Made by a program: the position numbers and the translations under genes
Origin: Terriglobia bacterium
GTDB lineage: Bacteria > Acidobacteriota > Terriglobia > Acidiferrales > UBA7541
NCBI GenBank assembly: GCA_963695545.1
Contig: OY968796.1
Coordinates: 1,696,001 to 1,760,000 of the forward strand
Length of the DNA: 64,000 bases
Direction: 5' to 3'
In this document: piece by piece, positions 1-12,056 of the stretch
Layout of the letters: each line of letters starts with the position of its first letter
How positions within the stretch are numbered: position 1 is the stretch's first letter
Notes under the pieces: generated by a model
Databases searched by the model: none
Seen by the model: the letters and a program-made list of their open reading frames with translations, nothing else
Told to the model about the DNA's origin: nothing

Positions 1-797
1 ACGCTGGCATCAGGCACGAAGGTGAGGCGGTAGACCGGCACTCGGACGACGAATTCACACGCGGACTCAAACACTAACCTAACCAATTCGGCATCCTCAG
101 CAAAAAACAGGATATTGGTGAGAAGCGCGCGCCCTGCCTCCGCTTGGGCGACCGGCTCGACTCGGTTCTGGAGGCCTTTCGCCAGTATGTACAACGCGGC
201 GATGGGCGCGCAGATGTTCTCACCCACTTTTGCTAGTTCTCCGGTAAAAGGCGTCCCGAAAGCAAAATAGCCCACCTCACGTTTCCGAACATAGGAGATC
301 TCATCGGAAAGCAGCACTGCATTTTCTGGCGCCAGCCTTGCGAGAGTGGTCTTACCGGCACCGGAAGCACCCGCGAACAAGAACGCCGCTCCATTCCGCA
401 CGGCGCTGGCCGCGTGCACGAGGAATCCTCCCCGCCGGGAGAGGGCCAGCGTGTGTACGATGCGCAATACCGCGTCGACAGAGTACGGGCTGGCGAAGTG
501 GCGAATGCTGCCTCTGTTCGAGATGGGGTTCCATTCGGCGCGAAAGTCGCCGCGCACGGCTGACCATCGGCCTGCTCGCTGGAGCACGTGTAGATCGTCA
601 TCTGACCCGATGGGGCCGGGCGGAGTCAGATCGATATCGAACTCGAACTCCGCATGTTCGGTCCGGCTCACGAACCCCGCATAGCGCTTCTCCAGCGAAC
701 GCAAGAAGGCAGAGTTGGCGGCGCGCAAGCGCACGGGAAGGCCACCGACCTCGATGACGATTTCTTGAATGTCGAGCGTGGTTTTCAGCTCTCGCAC
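1..797 (-). CDS. HPr-kinase-like P-loop protein (ScmC/HprK-related); 3' end runs off window
   Basis: Not in ORF track. Hand translation from GTG 797 is open to base 1: ...GGFLVHAASAVRNGAAFLFAGASGAGKTTLARL...LLSDEIS...FGTPFTGE. This gives the HPrK-type HA..., GxSGxGKT and SDE motifs. Start overlaps the peptidase stop. Confidence 0.85.
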   Translation of the reverse strand, partial: MRELKTTLDIQEIVIEVGGLPVRLRAANSAFLRSLEKRYAGFVSRTEHAEFEFDIDLTPPGPIGSDDDLHVLQRAGRWSAVRGDFRAEWNPISNRGSIRHFASPYSVDAVLRIVHTLALSRRGGFLVHAASAVRNGAAFLFAGASGAGKTTLARLAPENAVLLSDEISYVRKREVGYFAFGTPFTGELAKVGENICAPIAALYILAKGLQNRVEPVAQAEAGRALLTNILFFAEDAELVRLVFESACEFVVRVPVYRLTFVPDAS

Positions 798-1294
798 AGA
801 GCCTCTTGTTTTCCTCTTGAACGCTGCCGCATCGCATGCAAGCGGACGAGGGCCGTTGCGACTCGTCCGGAATGAGAAACCAGCGCCGCCGTAAGACGCG
901 CGCCGAAACTGAGCTGCGTACAAGGTTCGATCCATTTCCCGGCGCGAAGGATGGAAGAGACTTTTCCAAGCAACTCGGCGGCTGTGATGGCGGAATCCTG
1001 CAACGGAAGCGCATCGCCTCGGGTGACCAAACGCGCGATTTGATGATCATTCGTCCTAATCACCACGCGATGGGCGATGAACCTGCCATCGCGAGCGAAA
1101 AGCACGATATCGCCTGGAAGGACGTCGCCGATCTGCTGGCGACGAATCAAGAGGAGATCGCCGGGCCACACGGAAGGAAGCATGCTAAAACCCCTGACTT
1201 TCAACCGCAATCTCCCGGACGATCGCAGAACCTTTTCCGCCAGTTCGCACTTCGCGGCGTCAGCAGCTTCAAGTTTGGGGTGATTGATCGGCAT
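785..1294 (-). CDS. S24/S26 family (signal-peptidase-I-like) peptidase
   Basis: GFSMLP (Ser), PGDIVLF, IAHRV (His) and TRGD motifs. Start taken at ATG 1294 (GTG 1309 also possible); the 1528 extension looks spurious. Confidence 0.85.
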   Translation of the reverse strand: MPINHPKLEAADAAKCELAEKVLRSSGRLRLKVRGFSMLPSVWPGDLLLIRRQQIGDVLPGDIVLFARDGRFIAHRVVIRTNDHQIARLVTRGDALPLQDSAITAAELLGKVSSILRAGKWIEPCTQLSFGARLTAALVSHSGRVATALVRLHAMRQRSRGKQEALCES

Positions 1295-1594
1295 CGAGCA
1301 CTTGCTCACTCTCGCGCCTTGGCGCGGTGAAGTTGAATCGCCGCCGCGCCAGCGCCGCGACGTGCCACCATCGCCAGACTTCCTTCCAAGCGTGTGCGCG
1401 ATTTCCGCCTGCCATTCGCGGCCCCCAGATGGGCCTCTTGTCTGCCTGCACAGGTAGAGTGCAAGGGAAGGGAACCGATCCGGGTCAGAGATATCGCTGT
1501 CAGCATTGGTCTGGTGACCAATCGGCATTTAATGATTAGACGCCAACGAGCATCCGTTTCCACATGCGAATGGCTGGCCGCGCATATTCCGCGC

Positions 1595-1789
1595 CTAAGA
1601 AAGTTTGCGATTGAAATGGCATTGTGGCTGGGTACTGCTGATCTTTCCACACGTGAGTGCTGTAGTTTCAAAGACTTCCTCAGTACGAAATTCAGGTTTG
1701 CGGTAGGGTTTCTTCCTCACGCTACGCCCAATTTCTTCGTCTCCGCGGGAATGTCCCGTCTTGTCGCTGCCCGGCTTAGGATGAGTCAT
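1595..1789 (-). CDS. Putative RiPP precursor peptide, 64 aa
   Basis: MTHPKPGSDKTGHSRGDEEIGRSVRKKPYRKPEFRTEEVFETTALTCGKISSTQPQCHFNRKLS. GAGG RBS before ATG 1789, YxxP leader motif, and position upstream of peptidase and kinase genes. Confidence 0.75.
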   Translation of the reverse strand: MTHPKPGSDKTGHSRGDEEIGRSVRKKPYRKPEFRTEEVFETTALTCGKISSTQPQCHFNRKLS

Positions 1790-1858
1790 ATTCCTCGTTT
1801 CATGGCAAACCGGATTGTGTCGACCTTGGAGATGGTGGTTTAGAACGCTTGGTTGCAC

Positions 1859-4237
1859 TTACTGCAATCCGTTTTGTGTCAACTTTTGAAAACATCCCCC
1901 GGAGGTTGCCGAGTTACATTGAAAGGCGGAGCCAGCCCCACCAATTAGACTGGGCCCAGCTGGAGCCAGCCACGAGAAATAAATGCTCGACGCTTGTGGA
2001 AAATTCCCAACCGTTGTCAGAGCGTTGTTGTCGATGATTATTCCGCTCGTTCCGCCCGTGCTCACGTCTGAGAAAGCTGTAATACCCGTGTCGCCATTCC
2101 CTTCTGTACCTGATGGAGGCCATGAAGTTGTGGTGAGATCAAGAGACATTACGCAACCGGTCTGACCATTGCACGGCCAGTTTAAGTTCGCGACGCTGAG
2201 AAATATCCAATCCGTGGAAGTATTTGTATTATAGAACTCGGTTACCGGAGAGCACTGAACATTAGGGGGATCCGAGATCTCGGCACTGTACACGAGAGTC
2301 CGATAGGCTGTCGGGCCTCCGTCCGCAGTTGCATTCATAACACCAGTGCTGCTGAATCCGACGCGCCAAAGAGCAGGCGCATCGGCTAGCGTTGGATCCT
2401 TGCCACAGAAATAGAGAAACCCTGAGGTGCTATTCGCTAAACTATTGTAATAGGTATTGTCAAAATCGCCGGCGAACATCGCCGATCCGGTGCTGGTCCC
2501 GCCGACTCCCGCGAGCGTCACGACGCTACCCAGTGCCGTATTCGTCTGCACCACCTCCCCGTTGTTGACAGTATCTGTCCCATCGAACCAGAAGACGCGT
2601 TCCGATGTGCTGTCAACCAAGGGCCCATCAACAATGGAGCCAGACAGCGCTATCTCTGGTGAACCCAGGCAAGGTGGGATTCCAGAAGCGCACGATCCGG
2701 ACGAACTCCCCGTTTCTCGGGCGTACGAGATCTTTCCAGCCGAATCGCCAACGAAGATATTTCCGCTGCTCCCGTCGAAAACCGGACTCGTGAGAATCGC
2801 GCCAGCGTCCACGGTGATCGGCCAACCGCCCGTAATGACCTCGCCGGGCGTCCCCTGGAATACTCCCGAGAACTTGTGGAGTACGCCGCTTTCGTCCCCA
2901 ACGTATAGCGTATCGGTCGCGTAATCGTAAAACGGAGACGAGTTCGTATCTTCATTTCCGTTGTGAAACGGAACACTAATCATGCAAGATTCACCATTTG
3001 GACAGGTGGTTGTGTTCCAGGCCGTGTTACCCAATGCGCCTGCCGCTGTGTTGACGTAGCTATTCGTGGGTGTCATCGGCGATGTGATGGTGGTGCCTTC
3101 GCCTGCCACGCCCCTCAGAATCCGGAGGACAGCACCAGTCGAGACGGAGGTTTCGACGAACGCGACTTTATCGCCGAGCGCAGATAAGACAACTGATGTT
3201 TGCGCGCTGCCGGTGCCGGTGAAATAGGACCACATCACCGACGGCCCAGCTGTCCCGCAATACCCGGCCGGACTACCGCCAGCCTGTGATGCATAGAGTT
3301 GATTAAGCGCAATAATATTGGGCGTTCCGGATCCCTCCCCGCCCGAAGCGCCCGGAAGATCGTTGTTAAAAGTAACATAGTCGTTGATGCAGTCTGGAGC
3401 GGCATCGACGTTAAATGAGAATTTTGCCGGAAACGTAGTCGCGCTTCCGGTCGTGGCGGTGCCAGCCGCGAGCGAACTCATGGAGAATGCCCAATCCCGA
3501 TGCAGTTCGTCGATTGACGAATTGTTTTTCGGCGGGGCCGAAGCCGTGCCGAGCTCTGACGTCGCCGTACCGACTCCTCCGCAACTAGAAATCATCAAAA
3601 CGAGCAAAATCGCAAGAGCCGTCATCAACGTCGGCAGCCAACGTCGTCGACTCATAAATGCAACGACAAATGACAACCCTAAAATAACTGCCGCAATCTG
3701 GAAGCCGTGAACGGGTGACGCTGGCAGCGGTAGCGTTTCGGGTTGATTCTCTTGGGCCTCCGCCGCGTGGACAGTCGTTGCGAAGCTTACGTCCAGGGCC
3801 GCCGCTAAGCGCATCAGAGCGGTATTAGTCCTTGCGGTTAACGCCGGCGATCTGACCCCGTTTGCGTTACGCGGTTCCGAGTGGGTGGAGAACGGACCAG
3901 GACCGCGAGTAGTGCTGTAGTACGGCTGTAACGAACGTACATTTCGTCTCAGCCGTTGGTGAAGCAGGCGAGGATCCTTTTGGATTTTTGCCCAGACGGC
4001 AGGGTCAGATGTGTTGCTGAACACAAGGTGCTGATGAGACCAATCCCAAGGATATCCAACAGGTTGGCCATCCGAAGAGGCAGACCGTGTTGGCGAGACG
4101 AAATAGAACACCGTCAGAAAAACTAGGCCGCAAAGCGCTCCGCAAACGATCATTCGCACTTGCTTATGCCCAAGCTCAAGTCTCGCTCGAACACGCGAAA
4201 GCAGCACTCCCGGCCTGTGACGGGCGCCCCTTCCCAA
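1859..4237 (-). CDS. Large exported Ser/Thr/Gly/Cys-rich protein with beta-propeller-like repeats
   Basis: 792-aa ORF, GGAGGA before TTG, N-terminal hydrophobic segment. Blade-like repeats SSPFYDYATDTLYVGD, TSPVFDGSSGNIFVGD and DGPLVDSTSERVFW. Internal TM-RRRR-TM-SSCGG segment. Confidence 0.8.
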   Translation of the reverse strand: MGRGARHRPGVLLSRVRARLELGHKQVRMIVCGALCGLVFLTVFYFVSPTRSASSDGQPVGYPWDWSHQHLVFSNTSDPAVWAKIQKDPRLLHQRLRRNVRSLQPYYSTTRGPGPFSTHSEPRNANGVRSPALTARTNTALMRLAAALDVSFATTVHAAEAQENQPETLPLPASPVHGFQIAAVILGLSFVVAFMSRRRWLPTLMTALAILLVLMISSCGGVGTATSELGTASAPPKNNSSIDELHRDWAFSMSSLAAGTATTGSATTFPAKFSFNVDAAPDCINDYVTFNNDLPGASGGEGSGTPNIIALNQLYASQAGGSPAGYCGTAGPSVMWSYFTGTGSAQTSVVLSALGDKVAFVETSVSTGAVLRILRGVAGEGTTITSPMTPTNSYVNTAAGALGNTAWNTTTCPNGESCMISVPFHNGNEDTNSSPFYDYATDTLYVGDESGVLHKFSGVFQGTPGEVITGGWPITVDAGAILTSPVFDGSSGNIFVGDSAGKISYARETGSSSGSCASGIPPCLGSPEIALSGSIVDGPLVDSTSERVFWFDGTDTVNNGEVVQTNTALGSVVTLAGVGGTSTGSAMFAGDFDNTYYNSLANSTSGFLYFCGKDPTLADAPALWRVGFSSTGVMNATADGGPTAYRTLVYSAEISDPPNVQCSPVTEFYNTNTSTDWIFLSVANLNWPCNGQTGCVMSLDLTTTSWPPSGTEGNGDTGITAFSDVSTGGTSGIIIDNNALTTVGNFPQASSIYFSWLAPAGPSLIGGAGSAFQCNSATSGGCFQKLTQNGLQ

Positions 4238-6295: not shown

Positions 6296-7501
6296 CTGTT
6301 AAGCAAGAATCAAGCGCGGCGAAATCCGTCCTCCGCGGGTGAGCGCGTCGCCATTGTGGGTGGTTCGACGGCAGGGTTCTTCACTGCCTCGCTGCTCGCG
6401 CGCCGTGGAGTGCGCGTTCAGTTGTTCGAGCAAGCCGAGCAGCTCGATCCCGCGCCGCGCACGCTGATCGTCACTCATCGTATGCGCGAATTGCTCGGCG
6501 CGCACGCCGAGCCTTCCGTGGTCAACGAGATCCGCCGCTTTGAAATGTTCACGGATGGTCGCGCGGCCACCGTCGCCCTCGACCGCCCGGACCTCATTGT
6601 CGAACGCGCGCGTTTGATTCGCGGCCTCGCTGCCCAGGCCGAACGCGACGGCGCCCAGATTTCGATGGGGCGCCGATTCCTCGGCGTGCGAGGCAAGCCG
6701 CGCGGCAATGGTGCGGGCCTTCAGTTGACGCTCGGCGTTTCCGGATCCGGGGCGACCGAGCAAATCGACGCCGACACAGTCGTTGGCGCGGACGGCGCTC
6801 AGAGCCGCGTGGCCCAAGCCGCCGGTTGGCCGCGCATGCGCACCGTGCCGTTGATTCAAGCCATCGTCAAGATGCCAGCCGACATGCCGTCCGATTCCGT
6901 CCGTGTCTGGTTCGTTCCCGGAGACACGCCGTATTTCTACTGGCTCATTCCGGAATCGAACCAAACGGCCGCGCTCGGCCTGATCGGCGAAGACGGCCAT
7001 CACGCGCGCGAGTGCCTCGATCGATTCATGGACAAGCGACACTTCGAGCCGCTCTCGTTTCAAGGTGCGCGCATTCCCGTCTACGACGGCTGGGTCCCTG
7101 TCGAGCGGCGCCTCGGAGCCGGCCGCGTTTTTCTGGTCGGTGACGCCGCCTGTCAGGTCAAGGTCAGCACCGTTGGCGGCATCGTCACCGGTTTCCGCGG
7201 CGCGCTCGGGGTCTCCGAAGCCATCCTTGATGGCGGCCGCAGCCGCGAATTGCGCGCCCTTCGCCGCGAACTCGATCTGCACTTGCTGATTCGCCGCACC
7301 ATCCATACCTTCCAGCAGGCCGACTACAGCCGCTTGGTGGATTTGATGAACGCTTCGACCAAACGCTCTCTCAGCCGATACTCGCGCGATGAAGCCGGAC
7401 GCGTCCTCTGGCATTTGGCGATCAGCCAGCCACGCCTTCTTCTTCTCGGGCTGCGCGGGTTGTTGTCCGGCGGGAGCGCCTTCCGCTCGAACCTGCGGTG
7501 A
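6296..7501 (+). CDS. Geranylgeranyl-reductase-like FAD-dependent oxidoreductase (start uncertain)
   Basis: ERVAIVGGSTAG Rossmann start, VVGADGAQS, YWLIP, LVGDAA..V..STVGGI. No in-frame ATG/GTG/TTG upstream of the Rossmann strand; CTG 6296 used tentatively. Confidence 0.8.
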   Translation: MLSKNQARRNPSSAGERVAIVGGSTAGFFTASLLARRGVRVQLFEQAEQLDPAPRTLIVTHRMRELLGAHAEPSVVNEIRRFEMFTDGRAATVALDRPDLIVERARLIRGLAAQAERDGAQISMGRRFLGVRGKPRGNGAGLQLTLGVSGSGATEQIDADTVVGADGAQSRVAQAAGWPRMRTVPLIQAIVKMPADMPSDSVRVWFVPGDTPYFYWLIPESNQTAALGLIGEDGHHARECLDRFMDKRHFEPLSFQGARIPVYDGWVPVERRLGAGRVFLVGDAACQVKVSTVGGIVTGFRGALGVSEAILDGGRSRELRALRRELDLHLLIRRTIHTFQQADYSRLVDLMNASTKRSLSRYSRDEAGRVLWHLAISQPRLLLLGLRGLLSGGSAFRSNLR

Positions 7502-7694
7502 TCACTGCGATACGTTTCTGAGGCGCGGTAGCCGCGATTCACGCGCACCAACGATTGCTTTTCGCGGCGACCTCTATGCAAATTGCGTCACTCAGCTCGA
7601 GTTTCCTCTTTGCCGGTTGCGCGTTGTAAGCGAAAATGTTGATTCCGATCAAAGCGCCGCTGTGGCGCTGGATTCCATCACAAGCGGAGAGTGC

Positions 7695-9080
7695 ATGAAG
7701 CTCGCGGTAATCGGCTGTGGATACGTGGGACTCGTGACCGGCGGATGTCTCGCCGAAATCGGCCATGAGGTCATCGCCACTGACAACGACTCCGCAAAAA
7801 TCGCCGTCCTCGCGGCCGGCCGCGTGCCAATCTACGAGCCGAAACTTGAGCCCATGCTGGCCGCCGCGCGCCGCTCCGGCCGCCTGCGCTTCACTGCCGA
7901 CGCAGCCGAAGCTGTGCGCTCGGCGGATGTAATTTTCATTTGCGTCGGCACGCCGCCGCGCGAAACGGGCGAGGCGGATTTGTCCGCCATTGACAGCGTG
8001 GCGCGCATGATCGCGAGCGAGGCGCGCACTCCGAAACTGGTCATCGAGAAAAGCACCGTGCCGGCTCACACCGGCGAAAATCTGAAGCGCGCTCTCACCG
8101 TCTATGGCCGCAACGGTGGCACGTTGTTTCGGGTGGCCTCGAATCCCGAATTTCTGCGCGAAGGCACGGCCATCGGGGATTTTTTCCACCCCGATCGCAT
8201 CGTCATCGGTGTTGAAGACGCGGCTTCCACCGAGCAGCTTCGCGAGCTTTACTCTCCCATTCTCGAGGGTCGCTTCTCCTGCCCGGTCCATTCAGGCCAA
8301 TGCCCGCCGGCCGCGAAGCCGGAGTTTTTGGTGACCACGATCGCCAGCGCGGAGCTGATCAAGCACGCCTCGAATTCCTTTCTCGGCCTGAAAATTTCCT
8401 ATGCCAACGTACTCTCGGATCTATGCGAGAAGCTCGGCGGCAACGTCGACGAAGTCACGCGCGCCGTTGGACTCGATCCGCGCATCGGCCCGCAATTTTT
8501 GAAAGCGGGGCTCGGCTTCGGCGGCTTCTGCCTGCCGAAAGACATTCAGGCTTTCCTGCATCTGGCCGAGCAAGTGGGTGTGGATTTTGGACTCTTGCGC
8601 GAGGCGGAACGCGTGAACCGCCAGCGCGTCGACCGGCTGATGGAAAAAGTTCACCAGTTCCTTTGGGTCATCAAGGGCAAGGAAATCGGCCTGCTCGGTC
8701 TGGCCTTCAAACCATTCACCGACGACATCCGCCTCGCGCCCGCGCTCGAAGTGATTCGTCGCCTAAGCGCCGAAGGCGCCCGCTTGCGCGCCACCGATCC
8801 CGAAGCCATGGAGCGCACCCGCGCTCAGTTTCCCGATCTTGCCTATAGCGCCGATCCCTACGACGTCGCGCGCGGCGCAGACGCTCTACTGCTGCTCACC
8901 GAATGGCCCGAATACAAAAAACTTGATTGGAAACGCATTCACAAAGAAATGGCTCGTCCCCTGGTCATCGACGCGCGAAATCAGCTCGACCCCGCCACCA
9001 TGAGCGATCTGGGTTTCGAGTACGACTCCTTCGGCCGGCCGGGCTTGCACGTACCGGTCGCGCCAAAACAGTCGCGCTAG
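7695..9080 (+). CDS. ugd: UDP-glucose 6-dehydrogenase
   Basis: IGCGYVGL, EKSTVP, SNPEFLREG and GFGGFCLPKD (catalytic Cys); GGAG RBS. Confidence 0.95.
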   Translation: MKLAVIGCGYVGLVTGGCLAEIGHEVIATDNDSAKIAVLAAGRVPIYEPKLEPMLAAARRSGRLRFTADAAEAVRSADVIFICVGTPPRETGEADLSAIDSVARMIASEARTPKLVIEKSTVPAHTGENLKRALTVYGRNGGTLFRVASNPEFLREGTAIGDFFHPDRIVIGVEDAASTEQLRELYSPILEGRFSCPVHSGQCPPAAKPEFLVTTIASAELIKHASNSFLGLKISYANVLSDLCEKLGGNVDEVTRAVGLDPRIGPQFLKAGLGFGGFCLPKDIQAFLHLAEQVGVDFGLLREAERVNRQRVDRLMEKVHQFLWVIKGKEIGLLGLAFKPFTDDIRLAPALEVIRRLSAEGARLRATDPEAMERTRAQFPDLAYSADPYDVARGADALLLLTEWPEYKKLDWKRIHKEMARPLVIDARNQLDPATMSDLGFEYDSFGRPGLHVPVAPKQSR

Positions 9081-9104
9081 CCGAAAGTGAACCGCGTGCG
9101 GTGT

Positions 9105-10052
<948 letters not shown>

Positions 10053-10231
10053 AATTCGCTCCTCCCAACGCACTCGCCAGAATTTCGAGCAGCCCGGTCA
10101 CGCAAGTATGAAGCGTCCGCGTGTCCCGCAGCAAGCTTGCCCCGATTTCATGTGCCGGCGCCGCAAGATACTGCATCGCGCATTTGACCCGAACCGCCCG
10201 CCGCGTTAGCATTCGCCGCCGAGCACACTGC

Positions 10232-10936
10232 ATGAGCTTCAACTGGCCTCCACTCTACGAGCCGTATCCCGATCCCGCGCCACCCGCGGATGCGCCGCCC
10301 CCGCCGCGCCGGAATCAGCGCCGCATTCTGGTCGTGCTCACAGCGCTCGCGCTCTTGTTCGTCGTGGCGGCTGTTGTCTTCCTTCGCGTCGGCCAATGGC
10401 TCGTCATCGAAGACCCGCTCGCGCCCGCCGACGCCATCGTCATACTGAGCGGCCGAATTCCGGAACGCGCCATGGAAGCCGCGCGCATTTATCACGAGGG
10501 CGTTGCCAGCGAAGTGTGGATTTCGCAGGGCACGAGCCCGGCCGACGAACTTGCCAAGCTCAATATCCATTACCTCGGCGAGGATTTCTACAATCAGCAA
10601 ATTTTGCTCGCGATGAATGTGCCGCCCGATGCGATCCGCGTCCTCGATCAGCCTGCGTTAAACACCGAAGCCGAAGTCGATGAAATCGCCGCCGATCTGC
10701 GCGCCGACGGTTTCACCTCCGCCATCATCGTCACTTCAAAGCCGCACACGCGGCGCGTGCGTGCGATCTGGAATCGCCGCGCCGGCCCGGGGCTGCGCCT
10801 GATCGTCCGCTATCCCGAAGATGATCCCTACGATGGCGCGCATTGGTGGCGCAGCACCCGCGACGCTCTGGACGTCGTGCGCGAGGTTCTCGGCTTGCTA
10901 AACGCCTGGGCCGGGTTCCCGCTGCACGCGCTCTAA
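10232..10936 (+). CDS. YdcF/ElyC-like (DUF218) membrane-anchored protein
   Basis: N-terminal TM, ADAIVILSG, NTEAE, IVTSKPHTRR. Confidence 0.85.
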   Translation: MSFNWPPLYEPYPDPAPPADAPPPPRRNQRRILVVLTALALLFVVAAVVFLRVGQWLVIEDPLAPADAIVILSGRIPERAMEAARIYHEGVASEVWISQGTSPADELAKLNIHYLGEDFYNQQILLAMNVPPDAIRVLDQPALNTEAEVDEIAADLRADGFTSAIIVTSKPHTRRVRAIWNRRAGPGLRLIVRYPEDDPYDGAHWWRSTRDALDVVREVLGLLNAWAGFPLHAL

Positions 10937-11123: not shown

Positions 11124-11516
11124 ATGCTATCGATGCTTATACTCGTGTTATCGACCATCGCCCTAGTCCAATTTGGCGTGTACTACTGGCGCGCCTTGGT
11201 CGTGACGGCCGCGACCCAGCCCCTCTCCGATCGCGCGCGCGCCGCAGCCCAATTGGCTACGGACAAATCCGGCGCGCCCGACTTCGCCGCCGTGCTCAGC
11301 CTGCACCAGCTCACGCCGGGCCTGGGCGGCCAAGGCAGCGGACTCACGCTGGTCCGCTCGTATCACAGCGCCGTTAGCGCGCTGGGCCGGATGGTCCCTT
11401 CGCTCTCCGGCTGGGTCAACGGCGAGAAGCTAGTCTGCGCGCGTTATGCGACGGTGATGTTGGATCGCCGCCTGGCACGCGTTGCGGCCTGTGTTGCAAG
11501 CTCACAATCTTTCTAA
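11124..11516 (+). CDS. Hypothetical membrane-anchored protein, tandem paralogue 1
   Basis: 130 aa with N-terminal TM; closely similar paralogue 540 bp downstream. Confidence 0.85.
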   Translation: MLSMLILVLSTIALVQFGVYYWRALVVTAATQPLSDRARAAAQLATDKSGAPDFAAVLSLHQLTPGLGGQGSGLTLVRSYHSAVSALGRMVPSLSGWVNGEKLVCARYATVMLDRRLARVAACVASSQSF

Positions 11517-11663: not shown

Positions 11664-12056
11664 ATGCTGGCCCTGCTCATCCTCGCGCTATCCACCATCG
11701 CCCTGGGGCAATTCGGCGTGTATTACTGGCGCGCCCTGGTGGTGACGGCGGCTACCCAGCCCCTCTCCGATCGCGCGCGCGCCGCGGCTCAGCTCGCCAC
11801 CGATCGATCCGGCGCGCCTGACTTCTCCGCGGTCTTGAGCCTGCACAAGCTGTCACCGGGCCTGGGCGGCAGCGGCCGCGGCCTCACGCTGGTCCGCTCG
11901 TATCACGGCATCGTCAACGCGCTCGGCCGGATCGTCCCGCCGCTCTCAGGCTGGGCCAATGGCGAGAAAGCGGTTTGCGCGCGTTACGCCACTGCGATGC
12001 TCGATAGCCGCCTGGCGCGCGTTGCGGCCTGCGTGGCAAGCTCCCAATCCTTCTAA
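11664..12056 (+). CDS. Hypothetical membrane-anchored protein, tandem paralogue 2
   Basis: 130 aa, colinear with 11124..11516; many differences are synonymous. Confidence 0.85.
   Translation: MLALLILALSTIALGQFGVYYWRALVVTAATQPLSDRARAAAQLATDRSGAPDFSAVLSLHKLSPGLGGSGRGLTLVRSYHGIVNALGRIVPPLSGWANGEKAVCARYATAMLDSRLARVAACVASSQSF

Follow-up and report, generated by a model that had tools for sequence, protein, structure and literature searches.

The Operon

The DNA analysed here, referred to as the window, is a stretch of 64,000 nucleotides from contig OY968796.1 of a Terriglobia bacterium (GCA_963695545.1; genome 93.8% complete, designated G000), covering G000:C1:1696001-1760000, and its first bases carry part of an operon predicted to make a RiPP, a peptide synthesized on the ribosome and modified after translation. 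Seven co-oriented genes on the minus strand encode, in order, a large exported protein, a precursor peptide, an S26-family peptidase, an HPrK-like kinase, a PqqD-type RiPP recognition element (RRE), a radical S-adenosylmethionine (SAM) enzyme with a SPASM domain, and a nucleotidyltransferase (Table 1). Four of the seven lie inside the window and three beyond base 1. From the S26 gene onward, every stop codon overlaps the start of the next gene. Each gene is single-copy in G000, and none of the seven products reaches an NCBIfam cut-off. The kinase most likely starts at GTG 797, which is preceded by AAGAGG and overlaps the S26 stop. A promoter and terminator scan of the locus gave results at chance level.

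An earlier note, made from the letters of the window, had described four co-oriented genes, including a kinase gene missing from the open reading frame track, as the front half of a peptide-modification system, and had predicted PqqD/RRE and radical SAM/SPASM or nucleotidyltransferase genes beyond base 1. All four frames are present and recur in 80 related loci, and all three of the predicted gene types follow directly. Absence of a nearby RRE or other maturase and lack of conserved co-occurrence had been named as grounds for abandoning the idea; instead, RRE and radical SAM genes adjoin and synteny is strong.

Table 1. Genes and features of the operon (window positions unless a G000 position is given; aa, amino acids)
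Feature	Position	Strand	Description
Exported propeller protein	1859..4237	-	792 aa from TTG; no Pfam match; assigned by structure model and synteny
Insert in exported protein	3545..3790	-	Two hydrophobic helices around RRR, lipobox-like end
Precursor peptide	1595..1789	-	64 aa; GAGGA before ATG; YxKP leader, two Cys, terminal Ser64
Predicted core, Leu45-Ser64	1598..1657	-	Putative site: S26 cut after T/V-x-A
S26 peptidase	785..1294	-	ATG 1294; 169 aa; Sec11/SipW type, anchorless
HPrK/PEPCK-type kinase	1..797, end at G000:C1:1695982, 18 bases past base 1	-	271 aa
PqqD/RRE protein	Outside window, G000:C1:1696000-1695668	-	PF05402, E 5e-11
Radical SAM/SPASM enzyme	Outside window, G000:C1:1695671-1694529	-	380 aa; PF04055 + PF13186
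NTP_transf_5 nucleotidyltransferase	Outside window, G000:C1:1694532-1693288	-	PF14907, E 1e-49; D153-x-D155; optional member

Conservation of the Gene Set

A search seeded with the radical SAM enzyme matched at least 518 confirmed stretches, of which the best 80 were kept (the 80 loci). Nearly all come from Acidobacteriota assemblies, and the few remaining ones carry labels such as Verrucomicrobiia, Methylomirabilota, and Pseudomonadota. The kinase and the RRE are present in all 80, the S26 peptidase in 74, the precursor in 70, the exported protein in 58 (60 by profile), and the nucleotidyltransferase in 44-45. Because the same genes recur in 80 loci, the operon is not a chance arrangement, and the synteny across Acidobacteriota that had been proposed as a check is well supported. 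The system, carried by soil Acidobacteria, is real, widespread, and uncharacterised: 45 of 251 genomes of the class encode a precursor, as do 26 of 43 in the family.

Neighbouring genes were clustered from frames of at least 200 amino acids, and clusters were judged by eye from printed stretches. On that basis, no ABC exporter (also a proposed check), lasso cyclase, regulator, or second protease is conserved among the 80 loci, and the S26 enzyme is the sole conserved protease of the cassette.

The Precursor Peptide

The precursor matches no NCBIfam or Pfam model, yet its 72 aligned rows give a sharp consensus, KKPYxKPxFRxExVFx[TV]xALxCGK-x7-C-x6-S. In the window peptide, the YxKP leader occupies residues 26-40, followed by AL-x-C47-G-K49, Cys57, and the terminal Ser64. 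Cys47, Lys49, and the Ala are each kept in 71 of the 72 rows, and Cys57 and the terminal Ser in 70; the two rows that lack the Ser are one truncated copy and one frameshift. Thr or Val stands two places before the Ala in 70/72, with a variable residue between them. The two cysteines are nine residues apart in 60/69 rows and seven residues follow the second in 56/69, while the loop between them varies in sequence. Among 47 precursor genes of equal length, the third codon position is the most variable (entropy 0.90/0.81/1.46 by position), and the last Ser is encoded by four different codons ahead of three different stops. This invariant C-terminal Ser had not been foreseen by the earlier note, nor had the pairing of the precursor with the exported protein described below. 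When metagenome loci were retrieved with the peptide as seed, 79/80 had a terminal Ser, in a set biased by its ranking by likeness to the window peptide.

The loci L127 and L137 encode precursors with the same AL-x-CGK start and a C-x8-S end around a loop of ~55 residues, which suggests that the enzymes recognise both ends of the core and tolerate variation between them. At these loci (L127:6170-7278 and L137:3073-4187), three tandem long-core precursors with Gly-rich loops lie beside a kinase fusion of 744-944 amino acids.

A SPASM radical SAM enzyme, an RRE, and an adjacent leader-core precursor, the combination expected of an RRE-dependent radical SAM RiPP pathway, are all present, and the operon almost certainly encodes such a pathway. 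Conserved core cysteines, a mark of sactipeptides, are found as well (Cys47 and Cys57, counts above). The lasso-peptide Thr(-2) rule was considered for this precursor and rejected, as the residue before the Cys varies.

The Exported Propeller and Its Tie to the Precursor

The exported protein has a signal helix at residues 29-47, followed by a conserved DWS-x-x-H domain, an insert, and a C-terminal eight-bladed beta-propeller. The protein is probably ~764 amino acids long, as its hydrophobic signal begins at Met29 (window 4153). A structure model of residues 242-792 (551 residues; predicted local distance difference test, pLDDT, 80.5; predicted template modelling score, pTM, 0.88) matches eight-bladed propellers such as BamB, YxaL, and WD40 proteins with Z 25-27 and a root-mean-square deviation of 2.3-3.1. 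Foldseek and VIA fold searches returned generic propellers, with no enzyme family and no dehydrogenase prominent, and the predicted fold gives no function. The earlier note had called this protein a scaffold, which is the wrong word because the protein is exported while its partner enzymes are cytoplasmic. The insert (residues 150-231) has a transmembrane helix-RRR-transmembrane helix-lipobox layout with hydropathy peaks at residues 178 and 204, scores 30.3 bits against NF058595 (invert_tail; cut-off 37), and was not seen in a hydropathy scan of the homologues. A genuine lipobox would make the window propeller a lipoprotein.

Precursor and propeller genes occur together in 59 of the 80 loci; 11 have the precursor only, nine have neither, and one has the propeller only, so that the propeller accompanies 59/70 loci with a precursor and 1/10 without. 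A sample of 251 genomes gave a similar picture: 45 have the precursor, 34 the propeller, and 33 both, and 205 of the 206 precursor-negative genomes have no propeller match. Nine of the 12 precursor-only genomes were inspected, and eight of them carry, directly after the precursor, an exported propeller with CBM96 and PQQ_2 domains, a type distantly related to the first (probability 93.9). In L314, L315, and L319, the precursor and its CBM96/PQQ_2 neighbour form a pair without enzyme genes within ~7 kb. Exported proteins of this CBM96 + PQQ_2 type come after a second precursor subfamily in L305, L308, L310-L315, L318, and L319. Where a genome has the enzymes and no adjacent precursor, the precursor lies just 3' of a propeller gene in 5/5 genomes tested.

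The locus L302 (G378:C9:1-20000) holds eight propeller genes (28-75% identical) interleaved with six precursor genes, of which one is degenerate and one is cut by the contig end; the five compared are 85-95% identical in DNA. Two S26 fragments and no intact enzyme were found in 30 kb. This locus is a case of a constant peptide with varying partners. An apparent propeller-precursor fusion in L263 (a 1860-aa frame) was set aside as a probable frameshift, since the propeller lacks its usual end and the peptide carries a Met of its own. It is highly likely that the peptide and the propeller act in one function, and the closeness of the tie suggests that the peptide is a working partner rather than an antibiotic.

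The RRE and the Radical SAM Enzyme

The RRE very probably binds the YxKP leader. The reaction of the radical SAM enzyme is the weakest step of the proposed chemistry. Among NCBIfam models, AhbD, MftC, and NirJ2 score highest, with scores far short of the cut-offs, and its best sequence match in the PDB is the sactisynthase SkfB (E 1e-17). The enzyme has all eight SPASM cysteines, as does MftC. A six-residue active-site profile was read as defined by Precord et al. (2023, PMC10288494), with a mapping that recovers the published StsB residues on a Kitasatospora enzyme. The six residues are Y,S,K,S,V,Q, each kept in 79-81 of 81 sequences, compared with Y,T,I,S,K,L in StsB and F,F,T,S,H,Q in CteB. 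Positions 1, 2, and 4 resemble StsB over MftC (Y,S,S vs L,G,S), and an invariant Lys96 faces the active site. StsB-type models fit poorly (NF045574, 101 of 625 bits; NF045558, no precursor match), and so does mycofactocin, as the precursor ends in Ser where a mycofactocin precursor has a C-terminal Val-Tyr, and TIGR03962 gives 138 of 265 bits. Because this evidence is mixed and two cysteines are invariant, the chance that the enzyme makes a Cys thioether is put at even.

A mycofactocin- or PQQ-like route, in which the enzyme would decarboxylate or cyclise either the CGK motif or the (phospho)Ser terminus, with a small cofactor excised and loaded into the propeller, could account for the top family scores of the decarboxylases AhbD and MftC, the MftC-like SPASM cysteines, Lys96, and the PQQ_2 repeats of the second partner type. 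It is nevertheless quite improbable given the StsB-like positions 1, 2, and 4, the fold searches without a prominent dehydrogenase, and the absence, among the conserved genes, of further peptidases that could release such a cofactor; a free cofactor would also not call for a separate precursor gene for each propeller gene.

The S26 Peptidase

The earlier note had described a Ser/His S26-like peptidase without an N-terminal anchor, and the alignment bears this out. Among 75 rows, Ser37, Asp94, and Asp100 are kept in all and His75 in 74, and none has a hydrophobic helix ahead of the catalytic Ser. The enzyme matches PF00717, scores 45 bits on TIGR02228 (cut-off 51.9), and aligns as a profile with human SEC11C/SEC11A (E 7.5e-10) through its SM, HR, and GD..D motifs, so that the Ser-His-Asp motifs of the S26B (Sec11/SipW) type are present without the membrane anchor of that type (0/75). 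In a wider set, two true signal peptidases had anchor scores of 2.9-3.0, with all others at or below 1.5. A C-terminal Cys of these proteins was rejected as a feature and probably arises from the overlap of the gene with the kinase start codon.

Among the metagenome loci seeded with the peptide, 71 leave room for a following gene, and in 62 of them the S26 gene comes immediately downstream of the precursor. The S26 gene stays beside the enzymes where precursor and propeller have moved away (L009, L016, L018). The distant loci L152, L158, and L175 encode the peptidase as a fusion that precedes a signal peptide, an arrangement that puts it on the cytoplasmic side. These fusions (L158:8140-16500, L152:7126-8523, L175:480-1925) are in frame, and their exported part is either a giant C25 protein or a protein like Wza of polysaccharide export. 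The S26 profile matches 122 of 301 genomes of the phylum. From this phylum search, 60 distant regions were taken roughly in score order with near-duplicates skipped, and 37 of them have an RRE or radical SAM gene within ~8 kb. The only plasmid match is an unannotated Kitasatospora StsA-StsB-RRE-S26-ABC cluster (L082:5047-9689), whose StsA and StsB score above cut-off; its listed frames include an ABC transporter and lack a large exported partner.

The earlier note had suggested a leader-peptidase role for the S26 enzyme, and removal of the leader by this enzyme in the cytoplasm is likely, an inference drawn from its being the only protease of the cassette. SodX, an S26 pro-peptide protease, is a precedent, and the window enzyme scores weakly on the SodX model. 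The T/V-x-A pattern of the precursor fits the signal-peptidase (-3,-1) rule, which gives the predicted core Leu45-Ser64; a cut after T/V-x-A is put forward tentatively, as the somewhat less probable outcome, and distant precursors fit the pattern less well. A complex prediction of RRE, peptide, and S26 (score 0.22, mark 0.32) carries no weight in these conclusions.

Alternatively, the S26 enzyme would spare the peptide and process the exported protein or serve a general role, with the leader cut by a host protease or kept. It is often beside, or fused to, an exported C25 or Wza protein, and 23 of the 60 distant loci lack an RRE or radical SAM gene within ~8 kb, with arginase, TyrS, SecA, and similar neighbours, which also counts against a dedicated leader peptidase; in a quick tree, RiPP-linked and unlinked copies are intermixed. 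Yet an anchorless enzyme ahead of a signal peptide is on the wrong side for a signal peptidase, the gene remains with the enzymes when precursor and propeller move, and the Sts cluster has it without a large exported partner, so that this alternative is distinctly unlikely.

The available text of Precord et al. states that the StsA cleavage site is unknown, and the S26 enzyme is a candidate leader peptidase for Sts-type sactipeptides. Neither S26, S24, nor signal peptidase appears in the available text of a 2023 review of RiPP leader proteases (PMC10885120), and in passages of PMC6760926 and PMC13239113 'signal peptidase' is a loose label (RumPc is M16). The S26 enzyme is a candidate for a new class of leader peptidase.

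The Kinase and the Nucleotidyltransferase

The kinase carries His128, Lys149, and Asp165-Glu166, and its best model is ScmC TIGR04249 (48.6 bits, cut-off 125). Passages in PMC9266682 and PMC6993621 describe PadeK, ThcoK, SyanK, and PsmK as phosphorylating the terminal Ser of lasso precursors and PsmN as needed to place a hexose on the terminal-Ser phosphate. A precursor ending in Ser is shared with PadeK/PsmK-type kinases, and the full His-Lys-Asp-Asp motif is not, its first three residues being kept; among 22 distant kinases that could be matched, 17 have Asp-Asp, and 11 more gave no match. In the 60 distant S26 loci, 39 precursors were found with a hand-seeded profile, and they end in Ser in 34/35 cases beside a kinase and 2/4 without one, the latter group being too small for statistics. 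By analogy with PadeK and PsmK, the kinase would in all likelihood act on Ser64, and the nucleotidyltransferase, where present, would rather probably add a sugar or nucleotide cap to the Ser64 phosphate, in the manner of PsmN.

Distant Relatives and C25 Proteins

A C25 peptidase protein is the large neighbour in 18 of the 60 distant loci, 17 of them with a radical SAM gene. These proteins score below cut-off on the PorU model and keep the His and Cys motifs in 15 aligned copies. RRE-radical SAM-kinase-S26 cassettes beside large PorU/gingipain-like C25 exported proteins were observed in L118-L126, L142, L153-L156, L158, L160, L163, L169, and L172. No C25 match was found in G000 with a local profile that found nine further C25 proteins in fetched loci, and the C25 link therefore concerns relatives only.

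Other arrangements were also seen. Related cassettes in L132 and L133 have an extra B12-binding radical SAM gene between precursor and S26. SynChlorMet-like loci (L143, L159, L167, L171) carry S26 along with three radical SAM genes, of which one forms a fusion with the kinase, and their precursors match Precord group 6. A Thiodictyon plasmid cluster (L271:5647-11724) is annotated as RRE-radical SAM, radical SAM, amidohydrolase, YcaO, and TfuA.

Proposed Function and Alternatives

In the preferred explanation, whose chemistry is predicted from sequence, the RRE would bind the YxKP leader of the 64-residue precursor, the kinase would phosphorylate the terminal Ser64, and the nucleotidyltransferase, where present, would cap that phosphate with a sugar or nucleotide. 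The radical SAM enzyme would cross-link the precursor through its cysteines, the S26 peptidase would trim the leader in the cytoplasm, and the resulting short peptide would be the constant bound partner of the predicted secreted propeller encoded beside it. The mechanism as a whole stands an even chance of being right, and the same balance applies to the peptide staying bound as a small subunit or tether.

The two-cysteine core with an RRE and SPASM enzyme is typical of sactipeptides, and the available part of the Precord supplement (PMC10288494) scores the precursor family as predicted sacti/ranthipeptide. An ordinary diffusible RiPP, acting as a signal or antimicrobial with the propeller as its receptor, carrier, or immunity protein, would fit these features and the variable loop between the cysteines. 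Even so, no exporter or regulator is conserved, the near-identical peptides and strongly diverged propellers of L302 are the reverse of cognate toxin-immunity pairs, and phosphorylated pseudomycoidin and paeninodin showed no antibacterial activity according to passages in PMC6993621. A diffusible product is accordingly improbable; a constant peptide duplicated with varying secreted proteins and lacking its own exporter is better explained as a stoichiometric partner than as an antibiotic.

Several observations weigh against the preferred explanation. All counts are inflated by kinship among the genomes. Of the 70 precursor loci, 11 have no adjacent propeller, with a propeller elsewhere in 5/5 genomes tested, and four of the five genomes in which enzymes and precursor are split have near-identical peptides, are close kin, and may represent one event. 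Leu replaces the terminal Ser in two precursor copies of L306, and degeneration is seen in several copies. The radical SAM enzyme matches the StsB active site exactly at two of six positions only, and StsB and most C25-linked relatives lack the second SPASM cysteine. The second acid of the kinase motif is Glu in 80/84 sequences, where PadeK and PsmK have Asp, and the nucleotidyltransferase was not found in 35-36 of the 80 loci, some of them short. No exporter is conserved though the partner is exported, and the export route of the peptide is unexplained.

This last point also counts against a further possibility, namely that secreted proteins use the RiPP as a separately encoded anchor or subunit. 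Through the kinase and nucleotidyltransferase, the terminal Ser would become a phosphodiester bridge to a sugar or envelope glycan, and the cross-linked Cys-(Gly)-Lys end freed by S26 would be captured by the exported partner. Propellers would bind the peptide in the subfamily of the window, and the C25 domain would join it covalently in the 18 distant loci. Such an anchor is unlikely; if true, it would be a new way of surface protein display and a new role for RiPP chemistry.

Genomic Surroundings

The operon is flanked by polysaccharide-type genes (window 6356-10936; G000:C1:1670164-1682143) that are not conserved in the 80 loci. They include a geranylgeranyl-reductase-family oxidoreductase, identified by model, and sugar dehydrogenase, epimerase, glycosyltransferase, asparagine-synthase-like, and PEP-CTERM-like genes, identified by eye. 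A tandem pair of similar 130-aa genes, each with an N-terminal hydrophobic helix, lies at window 11124-11516 and 11664-12056. Nuclease-like and HNH-like frames at G000:C1:1686498-1689464 resemble part of a mobile element by eye.

Comparison with Known Systems

Removal of the leader in the cytoplasm is known for QhpC, the gamma subunit of quinohemoprotein amine dehydrogenase, a small peptide cross-linked by a radical SAM enzyme that assembles with an exported beta-propeller subunit and thus offers an analogy to the window peptide. The window system differs in having no haem subunit, no ABC exporter, and no Trp or Asp/Glu acceptor pattern, and the QhpC system has no kinase module.

SynChlorMet cassettes, as named in NCBIfam, share a ScmC-like kinase, a PqqD-like protein, and a SPASM enzyme. 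The operon has one radical SAM gene where that cassette has two, and its scores fall far short for ScmC (49/125 bits), ScmD (16/100), and ScmE (114/400), with the ScmF cut-off likewise not reached, so that it does not belong to that cassette. The StsA/StsB/StsC system of Streptomyces sparsogenes is alike in its MftC-group SPASM enzyme and stand-alone RRE, and the Kitasatospora L082 cluster has the same kind of anchorless S26. Unlike the operon described here, it has a CxCxC..GxGxG core, an ABC exporter, and seven SPASM cysteines, and no kinase or terminal Ser.

Closest in its precursor is group 16 of Precord et al. (six rows), which in the available part of PMC10288494 agrees with this family in the YxKP leader, the F-E-T-x-A-L-A-C-G-K motif, the second Cys, and the terminal Ser. 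It differs by a third Cys and is listed only as predicted sacti/ranthipeptide precursors under 'Other Uncharacterized'. Group 6 matches the distant EEAVL..CK..S precursor type. Neither a kinase, a peptidase, nor a nucleotidyltransferase is mentioned in the available main text, and the supplementary information may show these clusters. A literature search, with subscription journals mostly outside its scope, found no paper on the kinase, the S26 enzyme, the partner link, or the gene combination, and a term search of the available text of PMC7470986, PMC12710340, and PMC11002830 gave no relevant passage. The precursor family was thus already listed in 2023, and what is new here is that the precursor tracks an exported eight-bladed propeller.

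The paeninodin and pseudomycoidin lasso clusters share several features, with a YxxP leader, a stand-alone RRE, an HPrK-type kinase, a terminal Ser, and a DxD nucleotidyltransferase. Unlike them, the operon has a radical SAM enzyme, an S26 peptidase, and a kinase with Asp-Glu rather than Asp-Asp, and it lacks an ABC exporter. Lasso cyclase and B2 protease are absent from the operon genes and the neighbour clusters, where a short B2 protein (<200 aa) could be missed in relatives. Lasso-type Ser tailoring on a radical SAM peptide, an S26 enzyme in the place of the leader peptidase, and a tight genetic tie to an exported protein were not found together in print, and their combination would allow a direct test of why RiPPs, paeninodin and pseudomycoidin among them, carry phospho-Ser and sugar-phosphate tails.

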